In this document: positions 225-62,435 of the stretch, one piece after another
How positions within the stretch are numbered: position 1 is the first letter of the stretch
How the letters are laid out: each line of letters begins with the position of its first letter
Origin: Raillietiella orientalis
Lineage: Eukaryota
Direction: 5' to 3'
Length of the DNA: 64,000 nt
Assembly: GCA_036172245.1 (NCBI GenBank)
Contig: JAYWIR010000001.1
Coordinates: 3,348,001-3,412,000, forward strand
Notes under the pieces: generated by a model
Database searches by the model: none
What the model saw: only the letters and a program-made list of their open reading frames with translations
What the model was told of the DNA's origin: nothing
Translations under genes and position numbers: made by a program

Positions 225-560
225 AGAGAAGAGATTCCAGGAGCGGATCCTCTCCGGGTTTTGTTAGGAGAAGAAATGAGGATTGGCCCCCTCCAGAGTA
301 TCCCTTCGGAGAGAATAAGGAAGAAGCTCACTTCGAGGTTCTCTTTCAAGCGTGATGGACCATCTTCCAAGCGTGATTGGAACGGACTCCTTCCTCCAGA
401 GTCTTCCTGGATTCATAGGGTGGTCCCCTACCGCGGTACTGCTAACTTCAAGAGCTACACACACCCTCGGGTGGCGTGGACAGTGTTAAAGAGCCTCGTG
501 AGCCCCCCTAAGGAGGCGGGAAGTTCTTCAGTACTCCTTGAGAACCAAAAAGAAAAGAAA
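225..560 (+). mobile_element. SINE-like family copy A (3' part, A-rich tail)
   Basis: Aligns by eye with the reverse complement of 61665-62000: gaagagattccaggagc, ggaacggactccttcctcc, cttcctggattc, caccctcgggtggcgtggacagtg, gttcttcagtact, gaacc + A-rich tail. Confidence 0.8.
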
Positions 561-1064
561 ACCCTCCGCAAGAAAACAAAAAAAAAATCGCTTCTGGGAA
601 GGTCATCTTTCCCGTGGTACAGACTCAACGAAGAAACAAACTGCATGCGCAAAAGTCTCAGCTGCCGGATGAGCTGCCCGCCGTGGTTCAGTATCGTCAG
701 GCATCTTCTAGATAGCTGAAGGGTAAAATCACTCGCGAGGAGCTGCGTTCAGCAAGTCCAACCAGGATTCAACTCCCGGAAAAAAGTTCAAGGCAGATTA
801 TTTGGGTATCGACAGTGACCGCCGGCTGAAGCAAGAAAACACGTCACCAGTTTCACTTCGCCTGTGCGATTTCAATGTTACTCTCAATGTGCTCGTCAGC
901 TGTGGAGACTCCGTGACCTTTTTTCAGGCTCTCCGACGCACTTTCGACGCTGTCATCCAAGAGCGGGTCAAGTACTTTGGTACGCGTCTCGGAAAGTCCG
1001 TTTGGCTGCATTGGCTAGACCCTCTTGAAAGAGGTTAAATTCCGAGAGCCGAAATCCCGAAAGA

Positions 1065-23357: not shown

Positions 23358-24274
23358 TGGTTTATTCAGTTAAAAAACACATTTGGTTGCATGCTCGGAC
23401 ACAAACAAAGCATTGTTAGATTAGATACCGAATATTGAAGCTATAAAGTTAACATCTTTTCCAAACAGAAGCCCGTAACATCCAACATTGGACCATGAAA
23501 CATCTGTTTATTTTGATAAGCATTTGTATTTCCCACACAAAAAGGGAGGTTACCAGTACCACAGCAATAATACTGGTTCAATAAACTTGAAATCGTCACT
23601 ATTAATTTAAAAACATTTCTAGATTTTCAGTGCTGTATAACTCAGATATTTTTCTATTTCTTCTTAAAGAATTATCAATAAATTGAAATGCGCTATAATC
23701 CTTTGTTCAAAATTTACAAACAGTAAAATGCATAATTAATTTAGAGTATAGCCGAAAATCCACACCGACACCGTGCTGCTAAGAAATGAAAAGTTAAAAT
23801 GAATGTAACAAACAAGCTTAGAATTATATTTGTACTTTTAGGGATGAGATATTACAATTGATTTTCTATGATCCCGGTTTAATTTATATTGTGACTAACC
23901 AAAAGATTTCTGCAGAATATCACGTAAAGATCAACGATTCCCAGACGAGTAGGTAAATCTAATTATTACATAAAAAATTCTTTCGAGGTTTTCATTAGTT
24001 TACATTAAGCTAGCGCTCTGAAATTTGTTCAAAAAGGGTGAAGAAAAAGCAAGCTTCAGTGTAAAGTTGATTCAATGAAATATAATTATTAGTAAACTAT
24101 TACGGAGATAAAGTGCAATTTGTCGTATTCTTAGAATTCATGAGAACTGATTTTGTAAAAATTTTAGGAATTCTAGCAAATGGTATTTTTGAAACCACAT
24201 ATTGGAATTGTATTTTTGAAAATTCTTAAAAAGAAAAAAAGCTGGAAGGAAAACAGCTAAGACAGAAGAAAAAG

Positions 24275-24350
24275 AAGAACCCAAGGATTTCCATCGTCCT
24301 AGGCCAATAGTAACGATCTCCTCGTGGTGTCGCTATTGGCCTTTAAAAAA
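24275..24350 (+). repeat. Isolated retroposon-type 3' hairpin + A-run
   Basis: Perfect 10-bp stem AGGCCAATAG (24301-24310) / CTATTGGCCT (24333-24342), then ttaaaaaa. Homologous to the reverse complement of 46121-46200. Confidence 0.65.
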
Positions 24351-27300
24351 TATACATATATATAAAAATATATAAAAAAATTTTTTAAATGTGAATTAAT
24401 TAATTGAACATATCAATTAATTCAACAAAAGAACTTTTTTTTCTACAGAGAATTACACCAGTAAGGAAAACATGCGATAAATGTCATACTATCTCACAAG
24501 AAAACAGAAAAATATTCTTAGTCAGTGACGCATTGAAAACTGGCTTCATAATTAATCCTTCAAATTCATTCACGAGATGATGTCCTTTTCCTGCAAGAAA
24601 GTCTTCAAATTGTTTCTATTTTATTCTTCTCTCTATCCAATAAAGCAAATGTGTGATGTAGTTTGAACATCCAGAGACCATACAGTGAAGACATTTGTTT
24701 ATTTCTGACTGGACTGAAGTTTTATATCTTATAAATTGAATGTTTTTTCGAAATATCATTCTTATCTCATTAATAGGCACGATGTACTCAGCTGGATTCC
24801 GAAATGCGTCTTGGATATTAATTTTTCTTTGGGAGTTTCATTGAATTTTCTCTTCCCTTTGCCCACACTAAATGTGCCATCTGATAAAAACATAGATTCT
24901 TTTGTGAAAATAATGTAAACTATATAGAAACCTTTCTGCATTGTACTTGCCAGCTTGAGCAGAGTCTGGAAACTCAACGTTGTTCAAGATAAGAAGGAAT
25001 CTAATCCTATCTTTATCTCTTTATGTTTCATTCTTCTCTAAATTAAAAACAGAGAACGCTTGAAGAAATATGAAATTATCTGATGTTTAATTGGAAATCA
25101 GAGATGAAATTTAATCTAAATGAACCGAGAAGTCATCATAATCTACTTATACATAAGTATTGAAAGCTAAGGCATCAAAACCAATATAGCTCGTTGTGGA
25201 AATACAAAGCCATATACTTCATTATCATTGTAAGAAACTGTAATGACAAATGAGGTCTAAAGACCTCGGAACAATTTCCGATCAACTCAATACGTCAAAG
25301 CAATTTAAACAGAAACGGAAGTTTTCATACCTATGTGCAGACAGTAGCGTTAAGAATAATAATCCAAAAGAACAAAATCTTACATGAAATTCACTCGGTT
25401 AAAGAAAGATAAAGAATAAGTAATGGATAATCAACAGTTATTAAAAGATACTAATTTATTTATTTTAAATCAAAGCATTTGGACAAGCGAAGCGGATGTT
25501 CTACCGAAATGAGTATCAATCACCGAACGAACATTGAAATGATGAAAAATTAGGCACTGGCTGGGGCGTATTTTTTTCTGGTATACATCCTTGCCTTAAC
25601 CGTAAAGAAGAAATGAAGAAAAATAATCAAAAACTACGAAACGGACGGTGTTTGATTCCGAAACTGCAAGGTAAAAAAAAGATCAATAGAGGATAGGTAG
25701 CCGGATAGAACCGTGAAATGCATATTAATATGAACCAGTGGAACGAATTGAGTTGTGAATAAGTTACTTTTCTTCAATAACTTATTAGAGTCTAACAATG
25801 CAACATTCTATAAGCGGTTTTTAGATGAAAAATCTTTCAGAAAACAATACTGATGAACGCAACCGAAAATTCACATGCTGGTAATGCCAAAAAACTGGCT
25901 AGGGAAAAAATTGCTAGCAGCATAGGGATTCGCTTTTGAATAAATGTTGCTCCCATGAATTGTATCAGTGGTCTGTGTAGAGGGTAAGTCATAAGAAAAT
26001 ATGGAAACAAATGAACATTTGATGAAACGATACGGTATATAATGGAAATAAATGAAGTGATCGAAATGGAGACGGTCTGTGCAGAACACAAAAGAAAACC
26101 AAATATGCCAAACAAAATGCAGTGAACTCCTGTTTTCGAATACAAATCTATCTCACATGTAGTTTGTAGCTAATCCAGCTGCTTATCATGTGGTAACCAT
26201 ATTGCGAAACGTTACCTCGTGCGCAACGGGTGCAGTGTATGCACTGCCGTGGGGAAGCGTAGGTACTGCTTTTTGAGCGCTGCAGGCGGGTCGTCACGTG
26301 GACGCACCCGTTGTCCAGACGACGGGGAAAGCATCTTGCATGCCCCGGTCAACTCGTTCGCAAGTTTTATCGTAGTAGAAATGGAGGATTCTTTCTTTGT
26401 TTTGTTTTTTTGTTTTTGCGCCAGGATATGCTTCGGCACTGTGGGAAAAAACGTCGAAACGACGCGAAACGACGAAGTTGCCTGGGAATTTGTTAATTTC
26501 GTAATCATAGCAGAAAACAAGAGATTTTCACAGGCACCGAATCCGGTTTTCTGGTACTGATTTCAGAAATGTCGATTCTTGGAGTTTTGGTGGCTTTAGT
26601 TCCTGAGATGAGGAATTTGTCCTGTGGTGTGTGATGGCTTAGCTTGTAGAATAATAGAAGATCAGTTGTACAACATGTTAATTGCAGTATTCCAAACTAA
26701 AAGAAAATAAGTTTGGGATTTTATCAAGATTATAGCTCAATTAAAAAAAAAGTGGAAATGAATGCAAGAGAACACGCAAGTCACTTATTACAAATGATTC
26801 TAAATTTCATTTCTATGGTCACTCAACGAGAAACTTGCTCCCTAAATTCGACGAATGTAAAATTCTGTCAGGTGAAAACTGTCAAATGGAAAAATTGGAA
26901 AAAATGAATGTGACATTAAAAATCCGTTCCGATGTTTTATAAGTATTATTGCCGCTCAGAAACTTTTAGCTGAAGCGAGCAAAAAACTTCATTGCACTCA
27001 ACGTCACATAACACAAGTAAACAACTTTTATGCAATTTTCGTGCCATACTTAAGTTACATTTTGTAACAACAAAAAAACAGTTCACCATGTACGCAGTCA
27101 GCATTTGGTGTAATTAAAGCTAGAGCAGAAATTCCGGCTCCACGTAAGGAATATCACGGGAACCGAGTTACTGAACACTTGTGAGCTTGACATGAATGTG
27201 TGGTAATAGTAGAAAACATGAATAAATGAATAAGAAACAGTAAGATCACCGTTAATTTCTTTCCAGTTTTTACTTTTTTGATGCTCAAAGCGTATTTTGC

Positions 27301-27352: not shown

Positions 27353-28182
27353 ATGGAAAAAAACATGACAAAAACTTCAAGAATAAATCAAAAAAAACTT
27401 GTTATTGGGATTCTATCAGTAGTATTGCTTATATTTGTGCTATTTTCATATAGAAATACTTATGACCATATGTTGGAATTCAAAAAAGAGTTGCAAGAAT
27501 GCTTTGCATCAAGGGAAAAATCGGAATCACAATTGCAATGTTTGTTGGTTATCATTTTGATTAAGTTATTTAAATAAAAAAAAAAACATTCATCTTATAA
27601 ATTAATGTATCAATTGAATTTTGAACATGTATTGGTTAATTTTAGTTACTAAGGACTTGCATGCTGAAGCAGAGAAAAACTTGCAGCAATGCAAGCAAGG
27701 TAAGAATTCTGCTGAGAAAGAACACCAGGAGGCATTAACTCAGTGTAAATCTGCACAAAACAAAATGGAGAGGTATTCCAAATCAACTGAGGATAGCCTA
27801 AAGCAGTTGCAGGTAGGTTTATGTATTCCACATGAATTTATAGAAAATAATTGACTGTAGGTTCTTTTTAACACACTTGAAACGAAATATCAAAAACTTA
27901 TAACTGCTGAATCTATATGGAATGCAACAAAAACTGACTTGGAAAAAGCACTTACAGATCTTAAAAGTCACAAGGATAAAATCAAGAGTCTTGAGGTAAA
28001 CTCTTCATTATGTCCATGTGTAACATATCATTTTTAAGAATGAACTTGCCACATGCACTAGTGACAGGAGACGGACTGATGAACATGCAGCTGGAAAGGT
28101 TCTTAATTATGCTATTGCCAACAACTCGAAAATTGGAGATTCATAGAAGAAACAAGGTACAAAGTGGAAAAAAGCACAATAG
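27353..28182 (+). CDS. Small type II membrane coiled-coil protein, GOLIM4/GPP130 N-terminus-like
   Basis: Exons 27353-27539, 27646-27812, 27861-27995 and 28039-onward join in frame across GT-AG introns. Basic N-tail, one TM helix (LVIGILSVVLLIFVLFSY), then coiled coil with EKSESQLQFTKDLHAEAEKNLQ, which resembles my recollection of GOLIM4 ESLSAQLQVVYEHRSRLEKSLQ. The end is ambiguous: stop at 28146 if unspliced, or 28182 after one more intron. Confidence 0.6.
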
Positions 28183-37149: not shown

Positions 37150-37150
37150 A
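37145..37150 (+). promoter_or_regulatory. Putative polyadenylation signal overlapping the PLAA stop codon
   Basis: CAA TAA A gives AATAAA, followed by a T/GT-rich tract (ggttttttgagagttgtttgctttt). Confidence 0.55.
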
Positions 37151-42690: not shown

Positions 42691-45600
42691 TCAAAAAGTG
42701 TAACGGCTGACGTAAATGTAAAGACGGGACACGGCGTTGATGGTGTCGAACTCCGAGGAAAAAATCTCCATCTTCAGTTGCAGCTCGATGTCTTGGGGGC
42801 CTTTGATTGATTTGATAAGGTAGATGATGGCCTCGTTGGATGAATTCTGAGGTTGCAGCAGAAAAAAGCCTTTGTCTGCTTTGGGGACTCCCGTGGGTGC
42901 GTGAACATTCACGATATCCATCGTGAACCGCACGTCTTTCTGATGGGGAACCCTCATCCTGAACAACTCCATCCTGTTTTGGACAGCGGTTATGGGTAAG
43001 AGGGAAACCAGGGTGACGTAGTTGTACGAATAGCTCAAAGGCTGCTGCAGACATTCGAGTTCGTGAGAGTAGCATGGTTTCGATTTGGTGCAGCGGCTGA
43101 AAAACAAAAGTGCCATGATCGCGTCGGTCTCCAAGCACCCGAGGGTGATGAATCCGAACAGAATGCTGCGGCATCACTTGCACTCCCTTCCTTTCAACCG
43201 ACCTCAAGAGGACAGAGATCCCGAGGAGATGGAAACGAAACAAAAAGTAAAAAACAAAGCCAAGCAGAACAGCGTGGAGTTAAACGGAGAGCCGTGCCAC
43301 TCGCTACAGCGCATAGCGTTGCCTTCCACGTCTTAAGCGAGTACCTATATGGGAAAAGCGCCAGCGCTGGAGGCGCTCGTGTGGCAGCACTCTCAGCACT
43401 GCCACCCGCAGTTTCTTGAGCCTTGAACAACAGCAAACATCATTTCGTCTTTCGAAAACAGCGCAGGAAGATTGAGTGTTGGATTCATTAGATCGAAGAT
43501 GAGGTCTGATCGACCTGCAGGCTACACGCTGGTTGCCTGGACTGCCTACGTACCACTCTTCTGAAGGTCAAGACAAAAACAAAAGGCAACCCTGGTTGCA
43601 AGTTCTGAGATAAAGTTTCCTCTTCCCAGGTCATTCGATTGTAGAATGACGGCAACTCATCATCCAAAATTCATTCATCCAAAATTCATTTTTTTTTGTT
43701 TCGACTACCCATCTCGATACAATCAACATCATTCTATAAAGGCAGCATTTTGAAAATTTTGCTTTCAGCAAAGGTGACCACGTCGAATGCGCACTGTGTT
43801 GCTTTTTATGACAACAAGCTCGCTTTGGGAAAGGAGCGGGAAAACCAAACACGAAACCATGTTTGAATACATTAAATAACTTGCATTTCGATGTCCAACT
43901 TCACTGTTTACTCTGTCCTTGTGCGTTACAGAAAGAAATCACATACAACTATGTTATACCAGAATGTTTACTTCTTGAACGTTGCATCTTCGCAGTCATT
44001 AATGATTCAAATTATGTGCGTGGAATTACTTGAAATTTTTCAATTTCCTTTTTGGACAGTACATATGTATGTGTACTGTCAGATTTTTAATACTTTTGGC
44101 ACACCAAAGGTTTCTATTTGCCGCGTGAGTTGCCGGAGGAGCAGGGAAGCCGCTGGTTGAGTGCACGCTGAGGGCAGCATCGCGACCTCCAGCGTTTGGG
44201 TCGTGCGGCAAAGACAAGCGTCCTCTCTTGCTCTTCACAAAAACTTAGGAACAACGTGGGTCAGAAAGGGAGAAGTTTCCCCTTCCGATGCACGTCCTGT
44301 TGTCGCCGAGATACAGGAGGGAACAGGAGCCGGTACGCTTGTCCTGGCTGCAGGAAGGCAGAACTGCAAAGCGAACCGGTGCGCGCATCCCAAGGCGCCC
44401 TGCTCACACGTGGATCCCGGCCAAGGAGCCCAACGTCCACAAATTTTGCACACGTTGAAATTTCCTTGCTTTTCGAAATGAGAAAACAAACCGCTTCCTC
44501 GAAAGCGTTGCTCATCCTGCAGTTCCGCCGAGAGTTCCTAGCGGTCTCCATTCCAAGAACATCTTTCACTGTGGGAGCGGACTCTCATTCCGTCCATCAG
44601 ACATGCGCCATTCAAAGAACGGGGAGGAGGAGCAGCATCCGATAAACTGGAGCAACAAGGAAGTGCCTTCGTTCTTCTCGATCCACGGCGTCGGATGGAA
44701 ATTCCTTCCTGCTGAAGTGCAGTAGCACCCACGTTAGCTGGAGTGTCTCAGAAGAATGAGAACAGCAGGAGAAGGCGGCCGTTCCGTTTGTTTCCCCTCC
44801 TTACGAAATCTCTCGCCCGCCTCTCTGCGATCGGTTCGAAAAGTCAGCCTGCTGACGTCTGCTTTCCCTTCTTGGGGGTCCTTTGTTGACCTAGCATCGA
44901 GATTTTCCCCTCCTATCGCCTTTCTGCTCCTCCTTTCAGAGGGATCTTCCGCCTTTCGTGGTTTTCTTGCCAGCTGTTCGCTAAATGGTTTGGTCCGTTC
45001 TTTCTCCATGCCCTCCTTGCAACACATCTGTTTTCTTGGCCAAGTCCATACCGAAACGTCGCTTCCATCCGCCTCAGAGTCCTAAGGAATCTTTTCCCTA
45101 CTAACCGCCGAATCATGTGCCCCCAACACTGGCACTGGGTTTACTTCCGACCTTGTGGGATTCTTGGAGTCACTAGGATATACTTTTTGCCTTCCAAGCG
45201 TGATGTTCGACGTCTCGTCTTAATGGCAGCTGTCGGAAGCAGCGTTTCTTTGGCTTTGCATACGTACTTGACGCATCTGCAAGTAACACAGAGAACGTTC
45301 TGCAGCTCGGATCATGAGTGTGCGATGGCTAAGATCGATCCCAGGCAATGATTTGCATTATCCATTTCCATGGAACTCTCAGCGTCTATTTTCATGTTTG
45401 CAACAGATCAGTACCCTACGATCTTTCTGGTTCCTGAAGGTCCTCCATTTTCTTGATTGTGTTACGTTTTTGGGTGTTCAAGTGCCTTCCCTGTTTTGCT
45501 GCGAGCTGTGACATTTGTCTGCCTGGGGCGCTCTATGTCAGCCCTAAATGCCGGGATCTTTTCTGCCCGTCTTTGCAGCTCTTTTCAAACGTTTCTTGTT

Positions 45601-48600
45601 TCAACCTTCCCTTCTTTGGGCACTTAATGTTCTCATCAGTGACGTTGGCTCCTGTTTATCTTATACCTATCTTGTTTATCTCAACGTCTGTTTATCTTGG
45701 TATCTCTATCTTCACACTTCAAACGGCACTAAACTGTGGAAACCGGCTGACCAGGAATTTCAACCCTTTTTTTTTTTTTTCCTTTCCTGATAGTCGTTTC
45801 CTGGTCGTGGTGAACTGGCTGCATCGATTGCATCTCTCATCCACCTCAGTTTTCCGTAGTTATTCAGCAGCAAAGAATTTATGCTAATTGAACGCGAAGT
45901 TGCCACCATACATCTATTCTATCTTGCTGCGTCAGCACTCAATACTCTCCGATCATCCTCACGTTGGTCACGATCTCCATGGTCACCAGCGGAAATTCAC
46001 GTCGCATGCAGTCGATCTTCCATACAAAGAGATACATTGAAAAAGCATCGATCTTAACAAAGTTTGTCAGTTTCTTCTTCGAAAACCTTTGATTTTTCTT
46101 TTCTTTTCTTTCCCTTTTTTCTTAAAGGCTACTAGCGACCTCACGAGGACATCGTTACCATTGACCTAGGGTGGTGGGCATCCTGTGGATTCTTTGGATT
46201 CTTATCTTTTTTGATCCACCCGGTGCTCAAGAACAGGTTTGCTTCCGGCCTCCTTGGAGGCTCGACGATGCCTCCCCATGTGCACTGAGGAGGCCCTTCA
46301 AACAATGTCGACGCCATCCGCGGGGACCCCTCCTGGTTGCTCCTCCTGAGAGGAACTGCCCCTGATCTTCCTCCTCTGGAGGGCTTGCTCATATTCTCAC
46401 CTGTTCACTATTCGTTCGCTACTCCATCACTTCTAATTCTTCTTACTTCCCTCGTTTTTCTATTGGGCTCGTTACGTGCGAATTCATCTACGCGAAGATT
46501 CACCGGACTCGTGTTATTAATTATCAGGATTTGGAAACGTGACCCTATCAAAGAGGTGCGTCTGGATTTGTTCCACCTGAGACAGAGCAGCCGTCTTTTG
46601 CACCTTTCATCCCTCCATCAGGAAATGATCCATCTCATCCTCGTTATTCAAGAGCACCTGAGAGGAAGCATTTATTGGCTGTCACTATGCCTCGGAAGCA
46701 ACGCAGCACACTCAGTCAGTCCGGAAAGAATTTCTTTTCACGTCTATCCCCCATGCTAAAGGTGCAAAGGGGTGCGCCCCATTTTGGGAAGGAGCAGGGA
46801 AGGAGATCGCCTGCAAACCGCTTGCAAACAGCCAACCCAGCGGTCGTATTCCGTTCCCTCTGCGAGCTCTCTTTAATCTATTTATTTGCTGCCCCTTTCC
46901 CGTCATCTCTGGCCTTAGCGAGAATCTGACCTCAGGGTCAGCGACTTTCTAAACTTAAAGCAAATCTAAAAACTCGGTTCCTACGTTTGCGTGCCCATTA
47001 TGATTATAACAATAATTATTTGTAATGAATGCTCTGGCATGACCATGAGAAAACACTGACTATCAAGCTGATGCCGTCTCAAACCTTTGATGTCCAAAAG
47101 GCATATTTGCTGATCGAGTTCGATATGAAGTAGGTCACAGAACGGTGGCGGTTGACGAGGAGACTTTTGCCCCAGTGACTCTTCCACTCGTCCACAGTGC
47201 TGCAGTTTAACTTGTTAAGCTGCAGCACCGGACACTGTGAGAAGCTGCGTTCGTACTCTCGCTTTCGCAAATGCACCGGCATGTATCCGGTTTTCGAGCC
47301 TTTCCGTTGCTTGGAAGAGGACCGATCACGAATCCTTCCTGACCAACGGATCAGTCTGTTGTACGGGAAGAGCGGATTAAGTTATGGGTCAAACACGCTT
47401 TGCGAAAGAACGTTTGAATAAGAACAATGGCAGCTGTAAGAGGTGTGCGGACTTTTTCAGCGTTACCGGTGGATACGTCTAGCAACGGGAAAACTTTCGC
47501 TTGCCGCATCTTCGCTGCAAGGGCGACAGCAACCGTCGGGTGACCCCGTGGTTTCGAGAGAGTGCATCTTCTGATTCGCACCCGAAAGATTTGTGGCGCT
47601 TCCGTTTCAACGACTCGTTCAAAATGGCTTTCAACTAAGATAAACAGTTACTTTGCATGCTTGAGGTCCTTGTTGTATCCTGGTGGGCACTGGAGTTTGT
47701 AGCATTTGTAACCACCATTCAGGTTAATGCAGATGTCATTCTCCCCAGGGCACGCGTCCTGCAAACACTCGTCGACATCTACAAGGAGAAAAAAAAAGAA
47801 AAAGCAAAGAAACAGAAGGCTGTTTTCTTCCCAGTTATCTTCTGCCAAACATTGAACTGAAATCTACTTTAAGATCCTGACCAATTTCCAGATAGGCAAC
47901 ACCATGTCAGTTTTCCTGGAGGTCACCGTCGAGTTTACGGTCAACATGTGTGTTTTCACATCAATCAATCAATCCTTTTCCTACCTATGCACCTGCTCTT
48001 TTGAGGTCCCAACGTGTATCCAGAGGGACACGAACACATGAATGAACCAGGTTGGTTATAGCAAAGCCCGTGGCAAAGATTCTGGTCTTCACATTCGTTG
48101 ATGTCAACGCAAGTTCTGAAAGTACATGAGCCTCTTAAATGGGCAGCGCGAACCTTTTGTCGGAAGCCAGTTCGTAGCCATGGTTGCAGAAGCAGGAGAA
48201 GGACCCTTGAGTGTTCATGCACTTGTGATGGCAGACTTGATTCTGCTCTGTGCATTCGTTTATATCTGGAAAGGAGAAACACTTCTGAAACATGAAGACG
48301 CAGCTTATTTAAATCTTCAGAAGCGCTGCTTTCGCTCTTCGCCCGCAACTGGGTGTTTTGCGGGGGGGACTCATCAGGCACGCAAGGACGCGCACCTCAG
48401 GAGTGAAAGCGGGGGAACCCAGGTGCGGGCGAAACGGGCGCTGATGTGCGGGGTGGAACGTGTGTGATCATCTCAGGAGGATCGAGATCGGGGATCCGCC
48501 CAAGAGAATCGGCAGATGCGTTTTGGGGAACAGGAAGCGCCGGGACTCTTTGAGATGGTTCCGTTCATGGGGCCTTTACAGAAGCCATCATCGGAAGTCT

Positions 48601-51600
48601 TCGATGCCTTTGGAGTGTTTGAAATCTCTGAGTTGCTTTTGAAAATTCCCGAGTCGCGCCGGCGCTCATGAAGGAGGATGATTCGTGATCAGGGTTCGCA
48701 GAGGTCAGCGAGGTCAACAAGATTCCATGAGTCATTCAAGGAGTCGGGATCACCCACACACCCCCACACAAGCGAATAGGGTGCTTCTCGATCCCAGGAA
48801 GCCTGCTAGAAGGAAGCGGCAAAGAGTTCTGAATCAGAAAGGTAATAGGGAACGAAATAATGGCTCGGGATAAGCAAAGGCCTTAAAGTCTGGCTGAGAA
48901 GGTCGATGTTCTTGGCAACGTGAGGGAGACAGAAAATTAAGTGTTGCGAGCTCATCCATTTTTTGCAGCATCACTTTTAGCGCTTGTCTGCATTGAAGAA
49001 GAGACCCTCCTCCATCAGGGGTCCGATTTCTATTGGGATGTCCTCCATGAATCATGGAGATTGCTTTCAGCAACATTTTTAAATGAAAGAAGGAAAACAG
49101 CTGAATTCCTTCCCAGCGAAAGCTATCAAAGGAGACCGAGGCCAGAAAAGAAATCCCGCAACAGCTAAGAGGTTCACTCATTATTCCCTCGTTATTAGCA
49201 GGACCATGGATTCTGTCAACGGCAACGCTCATCCTTACGATGTGGCAAACGGTAACGAAGAGTTTTTCCGATTTCGATCCAGTTATTGGGTTAGTGGAGT
49301 GAAGATGAAGGATTTTTTTTTCCCAACCCAACGTGGGATTTCTCAACCATTTCTGCACGCATTCAACGTATCAGGGAGTCCTTACCCACGCACTGGAACT
49401 GTCCCATTTGTTTGAATCCTTTCTTGCAGTTGCACCGATATGAGCCGATCGTGTTTTCGCAGGAGGCGTGCTCCGAGCACAACGAATAGTCCAAGCACTC
49501 GTTGACGTCCTCGCAGTGGCCGCGAGCGTTTTTGTGGTAGCCATCCTTGCAATCGCAAGAGTAGGTTCCCGGCAAGTTGACGCAGATCTGATCGGGATAG
49601 CAGTCCGTGGTGTAGACAGAGCATTCGTCGATGTCTAAAGGGGAACAGCAGCTCTCCTGAAGAAGCCGACCTCCGGTCGGATTACCTTCGCAGCGGTCGG
49701 TGTATGCTGAGAACGAGAAGCCTTCAGCGCACTCGATTGCGTTCCTGCATTCGTAAGAACCGAGAGTGTTAATGCACTGCTGATGGCTGCGGCAGGCAGA
49801 AGGGTTGGCGCATTCATCTTCGTCTGGAGCATCAGGAAAGACAAAGGGGAATCAGTGAACAGCACAGAAGTGGTTTCCACAAGATACTGCAGAAACCAGA
49901 TGAGGCATTCATTCCTCTGCACCACAGTGACCGAAAAACGCGTGTTCCCGTTTGTGGTTTCCTCTCCTTTTACATCCCTGCCGCTTCCTTGCATTTGGTG
50001 CACGTTAGCCAGCAGGAGCTCGGGGGGGATGGGCACGTCATCTTTGCGGACTGTGATCTTGTTTTCCTGTTTCCAAAAGACTTCCTGGATGTTTCGCTTC
50101 TCCTGCACGCGTCTTTCTCTCCGCGCAAGAGAATGCGCCAAGATCCGAAGCGCAGCGCGGCTTCATGAGATGCTCTTCGAGAGAGGATGCAGAGTTTCGA
50201 GCGCTTTCCCCCCAAGAATTCGGTGGCATCCATTCTAAAAAATATGGCTTCGATCAACGGTCCACCGCGAGGGAGTGTTCGCCTCCTAAAAAAGCTTGGT
50301 TTCTTGGACTAGGACACACTCGAACTCCAATTTTCGCGAAAATCTTCGTTTTCTCCGGAAGAACTTCGCCCCGAGGGCATCTGCACGCGGATATCCAACC
50401 TCGAGTTCGCCATCAAGGTCATTATCATATTCCCTTGCTTCGAGAACACTGGAAAGCAAGGGTTGGACGGAAAGGTGCTGGCGAAGAAAATGATGCTACT
50501 GAGGGGAACTCTGGACTATCTAGCTGTTCATCTCTCAGTCCATCTTCTACTTCTCTTTGCGGAGCTTCTCCAGCTACCTACGGTACTGGAACATCCGATG
50601 GCGAAAGTCATATTGACCGGAGCAGCCGTCTGTCACAGATGTTGCCCTCCATTGGTCGCTTTCGCTTCCTTCCCCTCTTCACAAACCATCACCTGATGGG
50701 AGGACGACAACTCACCTATGCAGCCGTGCTCACCAGGCTGGAGGCCGGGTTTACATTTCATCTGCTCGCAGTATCCGCTGTCGCTCAGGAACTGACCCAG
50801 AGGGCAAGTTTTCTTTTTACAAAGGAACGACCCGAGGGTGTTCTCGCACTCCCATATGGAGCCCATCTTGTCGCAGTTGTGAGTGTTTTGCACGCACTCG
50901 TCATCATCTGAAAGCACCATTCATGAGAAACTCAGCGGGAAGCTGATGAGGAATTTCACGCTCCCACCCCCATCATGTGCAACGAGTGTCCTTCCACTTC
51001 TCGAAACGAAATTCGTTCTCTTCGCCTCCTTATAAACGCGACAATGAGTAGATGACGCTCTCAAATGGGCAGCGCCCGCAACCTACAGCGCGAGCGCGTT
51101 CCCCGCTGCTGAAGAACAGCCCAAGAGCTGACCAAGGTCCAGAAAGACACGAATTTTGGGGGGGCCCTGATGCGCTCCCGTCGAAATGTGGTGCGTAAGC
51201 CCGGACTTTCGTTGTTTGTCACACGTGCAATCCCGTTTCATCTCCTTGCTTTCCCAGATGGAACTGGGAAAGCCTTCGACGCCAAGTCCCGGCAGGAAAG
51301 GAAAGGGAAACCATCGATGAGTAGGAATCAGGCAGCCAATCAGGTGCGATTGCTGGGTGCTAAAGAACCGTTCACCTCCTTAGGAAGGGAGGAAGAAGAT
51401 GGGAGGGGGGTCACAAAACTCTTTAGCACTGTCCACGCCACCCGAGGGTGTGGTGCGTGTAGTGACTCTTCAAGTTATAGGGGTAACCCTGGAGTGACCA
51501 CTATTCCAGGAAGGTTCCGAAGGAAGCTGTCCGTTCTTTTCTTACTCTTAGGAGGAAAACCCCGAAGGGATTCTCTAGTCGATTCTCTCCGGAGGGAACC

Positions 51601-54600
51601 CGCACAGGAACTGCTTCTTGTTTTGCCTCCTCTGAAGAGAACCCCGAAGGGACGATTTCCAATTCCCTGAAGGGAGCTCCACCAAGGGAGTGCTTCTTGA
51701 CACTCTGGATACGCGACTCCCCGAGAAGGCATCAATTAGCTCCAAGGAACGGCTCCATTTTCACCAAAGAAGGGGTTGGATCCTGAAGGAAACCGTCGCT
51801 CTTTGATTTCTGGAGGGACGCCGTAGGACCAACTCCCAATCCTGGCCAGTCGGTGGGTGCATCCGGGAGTTTCCGGTTTCCACCAGGACGCACCCCTGCT
51901 GTCCTGCGTGCCAGATCCCGGCAGGTTCCTTTTCGTATTCCTAAGCAACGTGGCAGGATCAAACGTCCTGCCACAGACATATAAGTTTGTTTTATAAATA
52001 AATGCCCCGGCGTGACCGGGTGTCAACCAGGACAGCAACCGAAACCCGTGTACCAACCAGCGTTGCCCTGGAACCAACCTGCGACGCACCCTTCCACTCC
52101 CGTTTTGCGGTATCGATCCTCCACGTGGCGACTCGAACCCGCAATGCTCGGTGCCACGTCGAGCGGAGATCGCAGCCGTACGGCCCTGCCAACGCGGGGG
52201 GCGTGTGGTTCGGCTGCAGCTGCTAGGATACACCAGCACGCCATCAGAACCAGCTAGCATTCCCAGTTTGGTGACATCTCTCCACGTGGTGGGAAGATGC
52301 GGAAGGAAGAACACGAAGAATGGCAAGAGGAGTTGAGTGTTTGGGAAGAGGGACTGCAGGGATGTCCAAGGAAACCTGTGTGCCGGGTGAGGGAGAAGAA
52401 GGGTGGGAAGAAACACACACACACACATGCAGCAGGTTGGTTCGTTAGAGAAGGATCCAAGGATCCCTGGAGTTGCATCCAGAGACTGACGGAATGCTCA
52501 GGAGAGCAAGAAGCGAGAACGAAGAGGACTTTTTTTTCTCCCGGCAGAAGGTGAGGAGAATCCTGTCGTGACACTCTGGATCCGGATTCGCGAGGACGTG
52601 TGAAGATCACTGTCGGGGAGGAAGATTCCAGGGATAAAGATGGCTCGACGTGCTGTCCCGGCACCGCTCATTGCGATCTTCGCCGTTCTGGAGCTGACTG
52701 CTCCTCAGGAGCACCGGAAGGAAGCGCCTTTTTTGTTCCACCTCTGTTTGATATCCGCCTCTTTTGTTCTTTGTGGAGTTTCTTTGCAGAGTTCCTCTTC
52801 CCGCGGGTTCAAGGTCGAACCACTTGGTCGGCTTCCTCAGAGCCGGCTTCCCATCTCTCGTGGGGAGGCGGAAGAGGGAACCGTCGGCGCGTCTTCCTCT
52901 ACGTAAGGACTAGACGAATCTTCGAGATTCCCGTCTGGACCGCACGTGGGAACGGAGCGGAACTGGTCGTCTTGCTCGGTGTTCTCTGCGTCAGAGGCCG
53001 CGTCTCTGCGTGACCTTGAAGAAACCCGTGCCCAAGGCGTTCCATCAAGGAAGTTGCTCCAGACACCGAGGCAGCCGGCGCAAGTTCACCTCGGAGTTCC
53101 TGAAGAGCGACGGGTTCCCTCCCTCCCTTGACTGCCCACCCCCACCTTCTCCCCTCATTGGAAAGATGGCTCATTTCACTCTCCGAGGGGCTCCGGAAGG
53201 ACTCTCAAGAGTACGGTGGGAAAGCTTTCTTGTTTTTCACGGAACGTTTGGAAAATAAAAGTATGAGGAAATGGGAGGGGGAGGGACGCCGCAGATTGAG
53301 TAGTGGGAGCGTCGGTAAAATTCGATTTCATCCTTTCATCTTCAATTTCACCCTTTTTCAAAGGGAGGAATTGAAGATGCAGCCGTGGCTGACGGGCTTC
53401 ATTCCTTCACAGTATCTATGTTTTAATTTGAGTACATATAAAAGTATACAAATACAGTGGTACCTCGGTGCTCGTCGTTAATTCGTTTTGAAACTCGCGA
53501 CGAGTTCCGAAACCGACGAGTACCGAACGGCCCATGATCCACCACATGAACCATGAACCACCACAATCCATGAACCCACGATTAACGCTTAAAATGCATA
53601 GAAAGCACACAAACAGGAACGATTCGGGAGGTACTCTGCGGAAGTGCTCGGCACTGTTTCCGAGCTACCACGAGACGAAAGCGTTCACTTTTTTCATCAG
53701 GAGAGGGGGGGGGGGGTCGAGTTCCGAGCATGCGCCGAGTGTCAAAACGTTTTTTTCCTCGCCCAAAATCAGACGAGTACTGAGCTTGACTAAATCCGAA
53801 ACCTTTTATGAATAGAAGCGAATTAAATACAGCATGTCGATACGTGTATAGCTGTTTTAAATTTATTCCGTTTATTTGAAAACCGCTTTTTCCCATAAGT
53901 AACGCGAATGTATCGGATCAATAAATTACCACTCGACCGGGTACATTCGCATCACGGTGGCGCGAATCACATCGCGCGATTCGCACCACCTCCATCGTTC
54001 GGAACGCTGCGGATCCGAAAGTGGTCCGAGGTGTCCTGCGGTTCCCGGACAGCGTCGATGCTTCGGGTGTGAAGGTTGAAAGTGCAGCACGCGACGGGAA
54101 GCAGCAGCAGCTGAGATCGGCCAGGGTGGACGGCGCGCGTTGAACCCTCCAGAAGGAGGGGAGGAACGGGCGCGCGCGATGTGCCACGTCCCCCCCGCTC
54201 TCCTGCGTCACAAGGTTCGGCTTTTGCGGCTCTCGCGTTCAAAGGGGACGCGTCGCGATCGGCAAGCGGGGGGGGGGGAAGGCAAAACTGACCTTCGCAT
54301 TCGTGCGTCTCCACGTTGTACGTGTATCCTGTCCCGCATCCCGTGATGCGCGAGCAGACGTAGGATCCGATCGTGTTGTCGCAGCGCTGGGTCTCCAGGC
54401 AGATGCCCTGGTACAGGCCGCACTCGTTGATGTCTGGTCGAAGTTCGAGCACCTCCGGGTGCACACCCGCTCTCCCGGAAGCCATCATGCCTACCTTCGC
54501 ACCGGCCGTTGAGAGGGTTGCCCTGGAAGCCCCTATTGCACTGGCAGTGGTAGCCTCCGGGGGTATTCACGCACTTCTGGTCCTCATCGCAGGTGCGGGG

Positions 54601-57600
54601 GAGGCTGCACTCGTCGATGTCTTAAAGACAGTTCCTACTATCGCCACCCAACTCCGGACTGGAGGAAGCGGGCACTGCGCCCGCGTACCTGAGCAGGAGG
54701 TGGAGTTCCAGGAGAACCCCTCGTCGCAGAAGGGGTGTCCGCGTATGCACACGTAGCTGCCCTTCTGGTTGACGCACCACTCGCCCGGCGAACAGACCGC
54801 TTCGTCGCCCGCGCATTCGTCCACGTCTGGGGAGCACAGAAAGGAGGAGAGCGCGTCGTGGTCATCGTCCGGAAGACGGTCGATCCTGGAGGAACGGACG
54901 GAGGCGGGGAGGAAGAGGGAGGGGCAAGAAGGAAAATGGCATCCCCCCCCCATAGTGAGGGGGGGTTGGCTGGCAGCAGGGAGGCGGCTGCTCTCTGGAC
55001 ATTCGGGGCGATGGGGAACCACCGGCTCAGACCCGGAGGTCGGGTTCAGGCACATCGAGGGTGACGTGCCCCGGGGTTCATCCTTCCTTCTCTCCGGGAG
55101 AGAACGGTTTCTGGGACTCGTTCCCGACGCCCCTGACCTTGGCTTCCCGAACCGAAAAAAGCCAGGAGGATTCCTTGAAAACCCATTCCCAAGACAGAGT
55201 CGACCGTTGCCCGAGGGCGGGCTAGGGACGCCGAGCCCTGAAAACCATGTAGGAAGCTCGCGAAGGCGAGGTCATATGACCGGAAGCGACCGTTTCTCCC
55301 CTTCCTCCTCCTTCCCTTCCGCTCCCGTCCGTCGGCACCCGGGAAGCGGGAAAGCCAGAGAAGGGCAGAGTCGTCGACTCGCTGAGGAGCCGCCAGGAAG
55401 GGGAGGAACGGCAGGGTGTGCGTGGGGGGGGAGAAGGGAGGGAATGGGACGGGACGAGCAGTCGGTTCGAGCTCCTCCCGTTCCTGCTGCTCTCACCTTC
55501 GCAGAGATCCAGGGACCCGTTGTAGCGATACCCTCCCCGGCACAGGATGTCGCACTGGTAGCTCCCGGCGGTGTTGCGACAGAGCTGGGATTCTGGGGCA
55601 CACCCGTGGACGCCCTCAGCGCACTCGTCGATGTCTGAAAAGAGAGGGGAGGGGGCGTGAGAGATGTGCGGCGCCACCTCAGGAGCTCCCCCCTTCCGGC
55701 GGAAAGAGCTCGCAGAGCCCCCCCCCCGTGTCCTGTGAAGGACCCGAGGGGCTCTCTGAGCGGAAGTGACCACCACTGGTCCACGCTTCCTTCCTTCTCC
55801 TCCTTTCCCCGGAGGAACGGAGCTCTCGGAATGCGCGGGGCCCTGGTGGGCAAGCGTCTTCATATTCGGAGGGGCACGTCCAGGCTGGAGCATCGCCGAG
55901 GAAGGCTGCGGGCTCCCTGTTTTTTTGGCATCTGGCGAGGCATCCTGGCCCTGAGGGGCCCACGCGAGCGAAAGTCCTCCGATACGTTGCTTCCCCCCTC
56001 GGGGCATCCCCGTGCTTTCATGAGGAGACCCTGCGCCCTCCAGTCCGCGGACCGCTGCGTGGACGCGGCTCGCGCAGGGGAGGCAAGGTCCTCCTCCTCT
56101 GGAAGCTCTTCTGCGAGAGGCACCCATTCCAGCGGGGAAGGAGGAGGACCACCCAGCAACGAGAAAGGCCTTCTTCTTTCGCTAGCCGAGGGAAGCGGCG
56201 AGGCGGTGGGGCGGGAGGGGGGAGGGGAAAAAGCGACGGAAGGGGCGCGCAGGGAATCAGGGATGGGGGTCCTTACCTTTGCAGGTGGACTCCTCTTCGC
56301 TGAAGCGGTACCCTGGCTCGCATCTTCTGATCCTCCTCGAGATGTACGCGGCCGTCTTCCACAGGCGGCTCGGATGGCGCCCGAAGGCGTCGTCACCGCT
56401 CTTCCTCGGGAGGAGGTCCAGGCAGCTGAAGGAGCCCGGCGTGTTCCTGCACTCCTGGGCTCCCGGCTTGCACCCGTGGGCTCCGGTGGAGCACTCGTCC
56501 ACGTCTGCAATGGCGGACGGGAGAGGGGGGGAGGAGAGAGCGAAGCGAATCCGGGAGGAGGAGGGGCGATGGTGGCGAAGGGATGAGAGGGAACAGGGCA
56601 CGGGGGGGGGGGGGGGAGAGGGACGAGAGAATGAAATGGCGCGCTCACCGACGCAGGTGCGACCGTCGCGGTCCAGCGAGTATCCGGGGTAGCAGGCGCA
56701 CCGCACCGACGGACCGTCCTCGATGCATTTCTGGCTGCATAGATGGTCGCCTCGGCAACTGCGGAAAAAGAAACAGGGAGAGAGGGGGAAGGGGGGGAGG
56801 AGGAGGAGGAGGAGGAGGAGGAGGAGGAGACTCCTGCCTTCCTTCTTTCGTTCTTTCCTTTTGTTTCTTTTTTGGTTCGCCAAGTAGTGAAGGACTGTTC
56901 GCCTCCCTACGGGCAGGTCCCCAAACTCCAGTGCCGTCCACGCCAACCGAGGGTGCGTGGAACTTCTCAAGTTGGAGGGTACCCCGGCAGGATACCACCC
57001 TATGAATCAAGAAAGACTCCGCTTGGAAAGGAACCCCGAGAGGACCCTCTTCCGCATTCTCTCCGGAGGGACCCCCGGAGGAGGAATCACTCCTTCATCT
57101 CTTCTCCGGAGGGACCCCTACCCCCAAAGGATCCTCTCCTGGTTCCCTCCTGCCCTGAAGAGAACCCCGAAAGGAGCAGCGCGCTTCTTGCACTCTATAG
57201 AGGTATCGCTCCACCAGCTCCGTGGCACGCGATGGAGGGTCTCTCCCCATCACGAGCCCTCCTCCCCTCTCTCTCCGAGATGGACGATGGCCCCACTTTC
57301 ACATCCGGATGGGAACCCCGAAGGACTCCTTGATCCCTGGAAGCACCCCGGAGGGTCGACTCCCAAACACGGCCAGTCAACGGGGGGCGTCCGGCTTCCA
57401 CCAGTGTCGTACCCTAAGCCTGTAAGGTCAACCAGCGTCACCTTGCCAGGGGGACTCGAAGGACCCATCCTCCGTTTTCCGGCGCCTACCCCCCTTCCCC
57501 GAGTGGGATTAGAACTCGTGACGCCCAGTGCCGCGCGCGGACTTTTCTCCATTCTTCTCCCCTGTTCTCTCCTCATAGAAACGTCTCGCATCCCGAACAG

Positions 57601-59395
57601 GGAGAAAAAGACGGAGGACGCGTGGGATCTCGCCGGGAAGCTCTGACAAGGCGGTTTCCCGGGATCAGAGTCTCTTGCATCTCCGGGGTCCAGGTGTTAA
57701 AGTCAGCTGGCCCCCAGAGCCGCTCAGGCAGGAGGACGGACGTTAGGAGTTTGGGGCGAGCCAAAGGAAACTTCCCCTGCCTGAGGGGAAAACGGAAGTC
57801 GCGGAGCTGCTCCTGGGGAAGAGAGAGACTCGCAAGGAGCTCTTTCAAAACCTGAGGTCGCGCGCCCCGTCTGTAGTCAACGAAAGGCACGAGATCAGGG
57901 ACCCGGAAGCGATGCTGAAATCTGGAAGACCTCCCTCATCTCGCACGTCTGTCAGCGTCTCCTTCGGAACTGAAAGAAGACAGAGACGAGAAAAGGTGCC
58001 AGGAAAGGGGAGATTGCCTGACGGCCGAGGACGGCTACCACCGGAAGTTGCCGCTTTCGTGGCACCTCCGAGGAATGCCGAGCGATGTTCCCTACGAGAA
58101 AAAGGTCTTCACCAGAAGGAATGGTCTTCTTGGAAGGACTTTGCAGTTCTTCCAGCTCACCAGAAAGGACATGCAGAGGGCACGAGGAGAAGAAGAGACG
58201 GAGAAATGGGAGAATGGAAGAGGAATGAAGAAACAGAAGGGGAACGACGAAGAAGGAACGAAGAAAGAAGGAGAGATGAGCAAGGAGGAATGGAAACGAG
58301 GAACGAGGAAGACAGACGGAGGAACCATCTCATCATCAGGACAGGGGAAGCACAAAAAAATCAGCTTATGTCTCCGAAGAAAGGCTGGGTCGAAGACACG
58401 GAGCGCGACATGACCGACGAACCGTGAGAATCTCCCTTTTTTCTGCTGCCTCCTCGACGGAGAGTACAACCTCTCCCTGTTTGGATTTTGCTTCATCACC
58501 CCCCTAACCGGCGTCATCTACTCCAGGTGCCTCCCTGTAGGAGATGAACTTCGCGCCCGCCCAGCTACAGATGCGCGCCTATGAGATGAGATGATTCTGG
58601 AACCCAGAGGTGACAGACCCAGAGGTGAACCGCCGCAGCCCATTAGAACGGTTCGATCTGTTGCTCCTTCAAAAGAAGCACCCAAGTATTCATCCTCCGC
58701 CTCCACCCCCATCCCCATTCTGGTTGCTTTTGTGTTTCGGACACTAGAGGGACAATCCAGTCGAGCAGGGAGCTCACACTCCTACAAAAGGGTTTCGCAG
58801 TTCCTTCGGCTTCCAGGAAGGGCAGGAGGGGAGTTTTTGCATCGTGCCGCCAAGGCAAGGGGGGGGGGGAGCGACGGGAAAAGCGAACCTCCATTTCTTG
58901 AGGATGCGGAAGAAGGGAGCGAAGAGGCAGACGTCTCTTAGCTCGGTTGCAGCGCGCGGGAACTGAGAGATGCGACTTTCCCATGGGCTTCTTACCTGGG
59001 GCGAACGCACTGTTTGAGTTTGGCATTCCACTCTGACCCCGCGTCGCATCCGCAGCGAGGGATGCCGTCAACTCGCACGCAGAAGCGCTGGCATCGCTCC
59101 TCCTCTTCCTCCGTGCACTCATCCTCTGCGTGGTTGGAAAAGAATCGGTCGTGCGCGCGCCTGCGTGCGCAGGGAAGACGCACTCACTTTCTCCCTTCAA
59201 TCGGTGCAAGCAGCACTTATGGAAGACCTGCCTGAAGACCTGCGTTGAGTTGGAGAAGTTCTCAGAAAAGCAGGTGTCCGAGACAGCTCTCGTCCTCCTC
59301 CCGATTTGGCACGCGTAGCAGCAGTTCTGGTGGTACAAGAGCTTTTATTGGTGAAAGGCAGCCGAGGGCTCCCTGCAAATGTCGCCGTTCGCACC
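42691..59395 (-). CDS. FBLN1: Fibulin-1/2-like extracellular matrix protein (5' partial)
   Basis: Exons: 59395-59188 (anaphylatoxin-like, NCCYACQIG...VFHKCC), 59125-58996, 56758-56649, 56504-56277, 55634-55497, 54826-54689, 54620-54495, 54433-54293, 50907-50716, 49823-49686, 49634-49386, 48265-48154, 48115-47985, 47778-47652, 43096-42691. Tandem cbEGF modules (D[IV][DN]EC...C.N..GS[YF].C) and a fibulin C-terminal domain ([16 protein letters not shown]...[10 protein letters not shown]). Splice phases are consistent except for a frame break in the first exon. No signal-peptide exon was found. Confidence 0.92.
46090..46345 (-). mobile_element. Divergent SINE-like 3' fragment (copy E) with an additional second tail
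   Basis: ccgcggatggcgtcgaca...ccaaggaggccggaag...gttcttgagcac...aaaaaa resembles the family tail. It is followed by a different hairpin tail homologous to 24275-24350, then an A-rich run. Confidence 0.6.
51345..52200 (-). mobile_element. SINE-like family copy B (tRNA-like head)
   Basis: B-box-like GGTTCGAGTC at 52139-52130. Body homologous to copies C and D. 3' motif caccctcgggtggcgtggacagtgctaaaga...ttctttagcac. Confidence 0.8.
53455..53800 (+). mobile_element. Truncated pogo/Tigger-like MITE
   Basis: TA followed by CAGTGGTACCTCGG (a Tigger-type terminus), with internal repeats gacgagttccgaa, gacgagtaccgaa, gtcgagttccgag, gacgagtactgag. The right terminal repeat was not found. Confidence 0.6.
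56796..56829 (+). repeat. (GAG)n microsatellite
   Basis: Uninterrupted gaggaggag run beside the tail of SINE copy C. Confidence 0.95.
56845..57550 (-). mobile_element. SINE-like family copy C
   Basis: Degenerate B box (gagttctaatccc, ~57510). Shared body and tccacgcaccctcggttggcgtgga hairpin. Ends gaacc + A-rich tail, next to a GAG microsatellite. Confidence 0.75.
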
Positions 59396-60600: not shown

Positions 60601-61664
60601 GCTCCAGAACTCAGGTCTCCTCCATGCGATTCTTCAAATTCAGGGGAGTCGCCAACGCCGTGCCCTCGAAAACCTCGTAGCGAACTTCAGGAAACCAAGG
60701 ATCGTCTACACCGGAAAGGACATGCAGAGGGCACGAGGAGAAGAAGAGACGGAGAAATGGAGATGAAACCACTGGAAGAACCCCTCGTTGCATCTTCCGC
60801 TTCCCCTCAGGCAGGGGCCTTCCTGGCTTTGCGGGATCCATCCATCCTCCCAGGTCTCCACCATCGTCTCGCTGGCAGGGTTCCCATCGGCGTATCGATG
60901 CAAGAAGGTGAGGTGTTTTTCTCTGCAGGACCAGGAAGAGGCAGAAACTGTAAGGATGTGAAGGACCTTTCGCGGCAGCCCCCGTTTTGGTTCCTGCTAG
61001 AGAACTTTACGTGCTTTGCTGCCATGGAAGCACGTCCTTTCCACTCAGGATATTTATCTTTCTATGCCCTACTCCTGTCTGACACCATCCAAGGTTACCG
61101 ACCTGACTATTCCTTGACATCTTTGCATCCTCAACCTGCCGGCAGGAATCGAAGGATCTGGAGTCAAGCAGTGAGAACGGAGAAGGCCGGCTCCGCCTCA
61201 CCCCCTCACCCTCTTCAGGGTGCCACCTCCGTCTCTATCCTTCGTCTCTCCCGCTGAGCTTTTCTCAACGAGTGCAGCATGCAGCATGCAGATGTCTGCT
61301 CTGAGTTTCTTGAGGAGGACGGGCTGCTCGTATCACCAGAGATTCCCCAGAGAGTGGGAGTCTCCGTTCGCCATTTCCCGACGACGCGTCAAAGAACTGC
61401 CAACAAATCCCCGAATTCGCAAAGGATCGGCGTTGGCCAACTTAAGTAGATGAACGGATCTTCCTCCTCGCACGTGGAAAAATCAAGGATTCGATCTGAA
61501 AAAGTTTCCGGTTGCCAGAAAGATCGAAAGGGGGATTTTTTCTCAACCCCACCGTTTTGCTGACCCTGTCCACATCGTTGCTGTTGGGGGAAGGACCGGT
61601 TCGCCACCGGTGATGGAAATCCTTTCACGGGTTCTTCTGTTTTCGCTGCTTCCCTTCCAGCATG

Positions 61665-62435
61665 TTTTTTTTTTTTTTTGGTTCCCTAAGTGCTGAAGAA
61701 CCGTTCGCCCCTGAGAGGGCTGGACCCAAAAAGCTCTTCAGCACCGTCCACGCCTTCCGAGAGTGCGTGTAATTCTTTCAAGCTATAAAGGTACCCACGA
61801 ATCCAGGAAGGCTTCGGAGGAAGGACTCCGTTCCTCTTACTCTTGGGAGGAAACCCCGAAGGAAAACCTTCCTTCCCTATTCTCTCCGGAGGGACCAACC
61901 GGAAGGATCACTCCTCGTATCTTCTCCGAAGGGAACCCGGAAAGGGCTTGCTCCTGGAATTTCTTCCTCGGCAGGAATAAACTTGTTACTCCTTCCACAA
62001 AAGAACTGCTCTTTGCTTCTCCTACAGTGTAGAGAACCCCGAAGGGACGCTTTCAAATTTCTGTGAAAGGCGCTGCCCGAAGGGTGCTGCGCGCTTCTTA
62101 ACACTCTGGAGAGGCGACCCCCCGAGGAAATATCAACCAGCTTTACGGAACGGCTGCATTTTCAAATCCTGAAGGGCTCTTTGAAGTCCTGGAGTGACCC
62201 GGAGGGTCGACTTTCAATCCCAGCCAATCAACGGGGGCATCTGGGGATTTCTGTCTTCCATCGTTACAGCACCTGAACTCTTCAGATCAGTCCGCGTCAT
62301 CCACCGGGGGGGAACTCGAAACCCATAACACTGCCCCCATTTCTCGGCGTCAATCCTTCTTCATTGGGGTTCGAACCCGCAACGCTGGGTACCACGCTCG
62401 TGGAGACCAAGGCCGTCTACAACGCGGCCGAACTG
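61665..62435 (-). mobile_element. SINE-like family copy D (most complete: tRNA-like head, poly(A) tail)
   Basis: A-box-like ggccgcgttgtag (~62429-62417) and B box GGTTCGAACCC (62377-62367). Four cTTCGg hairpins. Terminal stem GTGCTGAAGA...TCTTCAGCAC, then gaacc and an A-run (T-run at ~61665-61679 on +). Confidence 0.85.

Follow-up and report, generated by a model that had tools for sequence, protein, structure and literature searches.

Catalogued SINEs span 75–662 nt in the SINEBase description (PMC3531059), which in another wording places them at <700 bp. LINEs of the Tx1 clade are known to target other transposons, and the account cited here (PMC4494074) gives target-specific examples that include Tx1 in Tx1D, Tx1-Mar in Mariner-N4_AMi, and Tx1-9_AMi in Harbinger, along with SINEU-3. 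Tailless retropseudogenes, as described in sections of PMC5322556, carry duplications and arise through mammalian L1. The titles and abstract openings of a partial literature set describe no UUCG-rich SINE and no LINE targeting a tRNA SINE.

Within the window (the whole 64-kb stretch of DNA analysed; G000:C1:3348001-3412000), a first-pass annotation flagged an element rich in cTTCGg hairpins as a candidate for a new structured retroposon. The flagged element belongs to an old tRNA-derived SINE family of unusual length, of which it is a dead copy. With a probability of roughly 80%, the joint reading is that of an extinct ~880-nt tRNA SINE with neutrally decaying, unit-derived hairpins and two-site targeting by Tx1-like LINEs. 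Overall, as a dead SINE the family is ordinary, and its interest lies in the partnership with LINEs.

A long tRNA-derived SINE and its copies

Using a family profile made from 45 genome copies, all five copies claimed in the window by the first-pass annotation were recovered, along with a further tailed fragment. The copies, followed by the parts of the flagged copy in its own 5' to 3' order, are:

226..584, plus strand: 5'-truncated SINE copy ending at the internal A-run (profile 412–761)
24230..24380, plus strand: 3' fragment with a true tail, missed by the first-pass annotation (profile match 24230–24347)
46090..46324, minus strand: diverged 3' fragment with a true tail (profile match 46122–46324; tail read from the sequence)
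51349..52198, minus strand: SINE copy split by a LINE fragment inserted at site 1 (profile 6–180 and 163–739)
56833..57541, minus strand: SINE copy ending near the internal A-run (profile 35–783)
61609..62431, minus strand: flagged SINE copy with full head and body and a tailless 3' end, 17.8% from the consensus (profile match 62428–61608, 624 bits)
62355..62431, minus strand: tRNA-derived head with a degenerate A box (consensus head aligned end to end with host tRNA-Arg(CCT))
62311..62324, minus strand: second B-box-like motif, duplicating the T-arm region of the head (33-column alignment of the two consensus motifs)
62254..62266, plus strand: empty LINE target site 1, TTCC^ATC on the plus strand, nick between 62259 and 62260 (read from the sequence)
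61840..62100, minus strand: stretch of degenerate ~40-nt tandem units, in which all four cTTCGg of the copy lie (consensus TRF and autocorrelation)
61749..61769, minus strand: CACGC/GCGTG hairpin (sequence, consensus and copy folds)
61690..61744, minus strand: GTGCTGAAGA/TCTTCAGCAC stem, perfect in the flagged copy, with an A-C mismatch in the consensus
61665..61679, minus strand: internal A-run, not a tail (family sequence continues to 61609)
61609..61664, minus strand: 3' part of the body, which closes with LINE target site 2, TTCC^ATCACC (profile match)

The consensus is ~880 nt long, comprising ~815 nt and a ~60-nt tail module, and its body is GC-rich with the tandem unit in the middle. 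Family sequence extends for ~55 nt beyond the internal A-run, up to TTCC ATCATC, and is followed by the terminal module (a hairpin, a T-run and an A tail), such that the true end is ~110 nt beyond the A-run. This module is present in the fragments at 46 kb (hairpin module 46122–46183, then an A-rich tail) and 24 kb (hairpin module 24284–24347, then an A/TA tail). It is absent from the flagged copy (locus L001), which stops ~6 nt past the site-2 nick with no LINE or tail downstream, and the A-run at 61665–61679 that had been taken for its A-rich tail is internal. The length of ~850 bp given for the copy at 51 kb counts in a 136-nt LINE fragment and its 8-nt duplication.

The claim of a long tRNA-headed SINE-type retroposon was borne out by head identity, copy number, dispersal, the tail module, and duplications on some tailed copies. 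The three working criteria of SINEBase, as worded in the text cited (PMC3531059), place the family among SINEs. As a repeat it is <1 kb, interspersed and non-tandem, with copies dispersed over many contigs. In number it exceeds the threshold of at least 100 copies (931 exact 15-mers; 240 fragments). For the head, where at least 60% tRNA identity over at least 60 nt is called for, the consensus agrees with host tRNA-Arg(CCT) at 50/78 columns (64%, best of 61 host tRNAs), host tRNAs having been used instead of SINEBase's human set. This score was reached by 1/200 shuffles that kept the B box (null P 0.005), though the isotype is ambiguous (tRNA-Glu 61 and tRNA-Asp 60 vs tRNA-Arg 63). Of the A/B-box-like heads previously described, the B box stands (62367–62377 in the flagged copy) and the A box is degenerate. 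TTTT is absent from the consensus body, which is compatible with Pol III transcription, though a weak indication of it.

An exact 15-mer from the B box occurs 931 times genome-wide (control, 0) and in none of 62 host tRNA loci. As the exact 15-mer is kept in 15/76 heads that were not selected by the B-box motif, the count extrapolates to ~4,700 headed copies in the 210-Mb genome. Ninety loci were picked by head motif, 87 of them with body sequence. The 240 non-redundant fragments aligned diverge from the consensus by a mean of 19% substitution (range, 12–35%), in a star-like pattern. A coding body was rejected (stops in all forward frames of the SINE part of the consensus), as was a Helitron with a hairpin before CTAG (CTAG is missing from most ends, and the element does not start with TC). 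No tRNA was detected in the 64-kb window by ARAGORN.

Indicating an animal source, the window carries exons of genes that are fibulin-like, KNTC1/Rod-like, or with WD40 and PUL domains, as well as a U5 snRNA gene:

29927-30041, plus strand: U5 snRNA gene (Rfam, 61 bits)

Within the fibulin-like EGF gene (42587–57006, minus strand) or upstream of it are the four minus-strand SINE copies, all in the orientation of the gene. The CpG observed/expected ratio is 0.2–0.4 at 16001–22000, 28001–30000 and 34001–38000 (KNTC1-like and WD40/PUL gene regions) and 0.7–1.0 in most other bins, and the low values suggest gene-body methylation over these regions. GC content ranges from 30% to 64%. The window also holds a 52-nt direct repeat at 98% identity (58158–58209 and 60709–60760), a 180-nt direct repeat at 81% (3604–3784 and 4443–4618), and a 115-nt inverted pair (1037–1148 and 1371–1485).

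The tandem unit and its UUCG hairpins

In the consensus body, TRF returned periods of 39–41 and autocorrelation peaked at 40, with a mean unit-pair similarity score of 35.5 against a null of 17.5 ± 0.9. TRF run on the window detected no ~40-nt unit in single copies, the periodicity being visible in the consensus only. The tandem-unit region is 106–297 nt long in the 87 copies and each unit contains two short palindromic slots (CCCTYCGGRG). The four sense cTTCGg reported for the flagged copy were confirmed (61856, 61926, 62039 and 62077), as were three in the copy at 51 kb. All four hairpins listed for the flagged copy have their motif, but in cccttcggag the position adjacent to the closing pair is a C-A mismatch.

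The consensus contains six cTTCGg compared to a mean expectation of 0.45 (0/1000 dinucleotide shuffles reach six), together with seven cTCCGg, and lacks the antisense CCGAAG. Of the six, four occupy type-1 slots of the unit and one the type-2 slot of an optional unit, while the last lies outside the tandem units near position 156; a stem of at least 3 bp is closed by 4/6. These UUCG and UCCG hairpins probably descend, for the most part, from one amplified ~40-nt unit rather than from a selected RNA fold, and would have decayed neutrally in the copies.

The description of the RNA as highly structured did not survive the test that the first-pass annotation had itself named for it, namely conservation or covariation of the UUCG stems. 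Fold stability of the consensus was not unusual (MFE z = -1.1 vs shuffles; flagged copy, z = -1.76). Across 158 locally predicted pairs and 240 fragments, pairing is retained in 348 of 704 double changes (permuted, 330 ± 17), with similar small excesses in slid controls; covariation is thus not detected. The six cTTCGg are intact in 0.29–0.46 of copies (median for 210 comparable one-CpG hexamers, 0.31), with sites 355 and 393 kept somewhat better than background (0.46 and 0.43). The change from GTGCTGAAGA to GTGCTAAAGA, previously read as compensatory, resolves into two one-sided changes from an A-C mismatch. At this position the mismatch is the commonest state (53/121 copies; G-C, 19; A-T, 12), and 35 copies pair compared to 33.6 expected under independence.

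A living source gene or young subfamily was not seen among the matches considered. When the long copies closest to the consensus (12% and 15% diverged) served as queries, no long match exceeded 77% and 80%, respectively, among the 40 scored of 5,426 and 6,495 candidates. Rfam gave no match for any SINE copy, and in the window only the U5 gene and a weak, low-complexity miRNA match.

Two readings would keep a function for the fold. In one, the master RNA was selected for a chain of UNCG tetraloop hairpins (for stability, protection from decay or RNP binding), a property that dead copies cannot show. The sense-only excess of cUUCGg (six) and cUCCGg (seven) in the consensus fits this, the variable base of a slot is often the N of UNCG (9/14 slots fit cUNCGg), and copies show no hypermutability of this base at their TTCG sites (0.87 identity). 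The base is, however, labile at TCCG sites (0.72), the consensus has neither excess stability nor covariation beyond that of the slid controls, and one amplified unit explains most motifs. With only 3/10,240 column pairs linked after correction, there are no distinct masters to compare. An effect at the level of the master is unlikely, retaining some weight because selection on a master is invisible in dead copies and because of the 9/14 slots. The other reading, raised by the first-pass annotation, takes the copies for retropseudogenes of an undescribed, functional, structured ncRNA gene. The lack of Rfam matches speaks for it, and the star-like divergence fits a single source, but the 40 candidates scored per query include no long near-consensus match. 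Thousands of copies, a tRNA head with a long body, and a repeat region of variable length fit a SINE instead, leaving pseudogenes of a living ncRNA scarcely credible.

LINE insertions at two sites and the 3' ends of copies

Inside the SINE are two fixed TTCC^AYCA sites at which Tx1-like LINEs of two subfamilies insert, antisense at site 1 (position ~181) and sense at site 2 (~808). The inserts are independent, 5'-truncated events with target duplications and variable lengths. One of these events falls within the window:

51882..52033, plus strand: 5'-truncated Tx1-like LINE 3' end with its duplications (L283), antisense to the SINE; the LINE fragment, 51890–52025, lies between 8-nt duplications at 51882–51889 and 52026–52033

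At site 1, the SINE head adjoins 17/30 LINE ends of the second subfamily (the first 30 of 91 exact ends), above the >20% of copies at one target asked of Tx1-type targeting, with the reservation that the search motif came from ends first seen in SINE-inserted copies and may inflate the fraction. Fourteen two-sided cases have inserts of 144–1237 nt and 12 of them have duplications of 8–16 nt. Site 2 yielded 39 cases (inserts of 151–1341 nt), a set gathered with a query from a site-2 copy and hence without an unbiased denominator. In the 26 of these cases without a tail, the bases after ATCATC are common to both junctions at 2.9/5 positions vs 1.3 (0/2000 permutations). Because these shared bases are locus-specific, the inserts are in-place insertions into individual copies.

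Some SINE copies continue into ~1 kb of sequence whose consensus encodes a zf-RVT-type C-terminus. Matching intact ORF2s in the genome (1198–1212 aa) have endonuclease, RT and zf-RVT domains, with zinc-knuckle ORF1s upstream, and belong to young relatives (~65–73% DNA identity to the site-2 fragments) rather than to the targeting subfamilies themselves. The best family-named match of the LINE ORF2 is Xenopus Tx1 ORF2 (31%; 26% over 929 aa), and since human L1 ORF2 also matches (E 3e-44), 'Tx1-like' is an assignment by similarity. LINE 3' ends have AATAAA together with a small hairpin of variable loop, and no poly(A). The young Tx1-like LINEs with intact ORF2 (L146–L157) lack poly(A) and conserve a 3' hairpin that varies between subfamilies in its loop; they are densely clustered and nested, in many cases on small contigs or close to the ends of contigs (for example, G000:C53:276300-284800).

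The 26 junctions that reach site 2 divide into 7 with a tail, 5 with a LINE and 14 tailless. Past the nick, tailless ends retain a median of 6 nt (22 ends), and the flagged copy belongs to this class, with neither tail nor duplication. In the search for target-site duplications that had been proposed, tailed copies exceed chance (4/13 score ≥8, p = 0.003), and tailless ones do so marginally if at all (1/24; p = 0.05 unanchored, p = 0.33 anchored). Longer LINE insertions hidden behind tailless ends were considered and rejected, 25/90 site-2 junctions having no LINE or called tail across 47–2500 nt downstream. At least two of these 25 (L183 and L226) were reassigned, as a very short LINE insert and a decayed tail. 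Around the internal A-run (profile positions 745–790) end 19/87 head-selected copies (L158–L247), as do the window copies at 226–584 and 56833–57541, which suggests a third class of ends formed by internal A priming.

As a mechanism, Pol III would have transcribed a few master copies, and a LINE reverse transcriptase would have re-inserted the transcripts by target-primed reverse transcription. The LINE is a putative partner of the SINE; the SINE 3' end and the LINE have no homology beyond the target motif. Tailless site-2 ends may, with less certainty, be products of the same LINE machinery, and they admit two readings: priming of the RT at AUCAUC in the SINE RNA with a lost duplication, or endonuclease cutting followed by deletion.

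The first of these extends to a self-reinforcing pair, proposed here tentatively, in which the SINE would hijack the LINE by mimicking its target rather than its tail. The SINE carries the endonuclease target motif twice, with one copy at its 3' end. This 3' motif might let the LINE RT start inside the SINE RNA without a LINE-derived tail or poly(A), priming there would yield the dominant tailless class, and each new SINE would supply two landing sites on which separate LINE subfamilies could have specialised. Tailless copies lack duplications, though, and simple priming predicts them. A LINE endonuclease that cut finished SINEs at site 2, with repair deleting the tail and flank, would account for the missing duplications (1/24 vs 4/13 in tailed copies), the lack of LINE sequence after tailless ends, and retained bases at L082 that do not look target-derived. 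Such cutting is nevertheless a doubtful source of these ends, as it needs deletions at about half of complete copies (14/26), and the retained length is tight (median 6) and below that of site-1 duplications (mostly 8–16). As for the element as a whole, it is very improbable that it represents the 5' portion of some non-autonomous LINE derivative, or a ~1.85-kb SINE-LINE chimeric master. Many copies do run into the zf-RVT-coding LINE 3' end, and L231, L232 and L236 share a similar junction, but intact LINE loci match the LINE part only, not the head or body. Insert lengths vary (151–1341 nt) and duplications are locus-specific, and therefore most are in-place insertions; the site-2 junction analysis rules out a single 1.85-kb chimeric master while leaving room for a minor one.

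The site-2 insertions of L231, L232 and L236 start at nearly the same LINE position (1094–1099), which a microhomology hotspot would explain, as would a small chimeric master. Upstream of L010, L019, L020 and L029, up to 650 nt of sequence is common at 76–88%; it is partly the site-1 LINE insert, and older duplications could also contribute.

Comparison with known systems

The discovery of a structured RNA does not hold, and the two-site LINE targeting and the tailless class are the results that retain value. The SINE-LINE pair offers clear natural data on how LINEs choose their targets: the consensus gives the empty site, so that dozens of independent insertions at the two sites show where the nick falls and how long the duplication is. 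Should tailless ends arise by priming at the target motif, they would represent a route of SINE-LINE recognition distinct from shared tails and poly(A), one that can be tested with the intact LINE relatives in the same genome.

Compared to the tRNA SINEs of SINEBase, as characterised in the text cited (PMC3531059), the family shares a head with at least 60% tRNA identity over at least 60 nt, >100 dispersed copies, a length under 1 kb, and an A-rich tail. It differs in its ~815 nt before the tail module, which exceeds the 75–662 nt range catalogued in 2013 as well as the <700 bp of the other wording, in its duplicated B-box region, and in that most complete copies are without a tail. With the CHRS family, as outlined in the same source (PMC3531059), it shares a body of degenerate tandem motif in variable repeat number, although the unit is ~40 nt with palindromic UNCG-type slots here and ~20 nt in CHRS.

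Like the Tx1-clade LINEs covered in the cited account (PMC4494074), the LINE here is an endonuclease-RT element found at fixed sites in another mobile element, and the 20% criterion given there is exceeded at site 1; its clade is assigned by similarity only. In contrast to those examples, the target is a tRNA SINE, hit at two sites in opposite orientations by two subfamilies. Tailless ends resemble the tailless retropseudogenes and SINEs described in sections of PMC5322556 in being truncated at the 3' side at a defined internal position with no oligo(A), but differ in that no duplications were found and that the truncation coincides with the nick site of a LINE.
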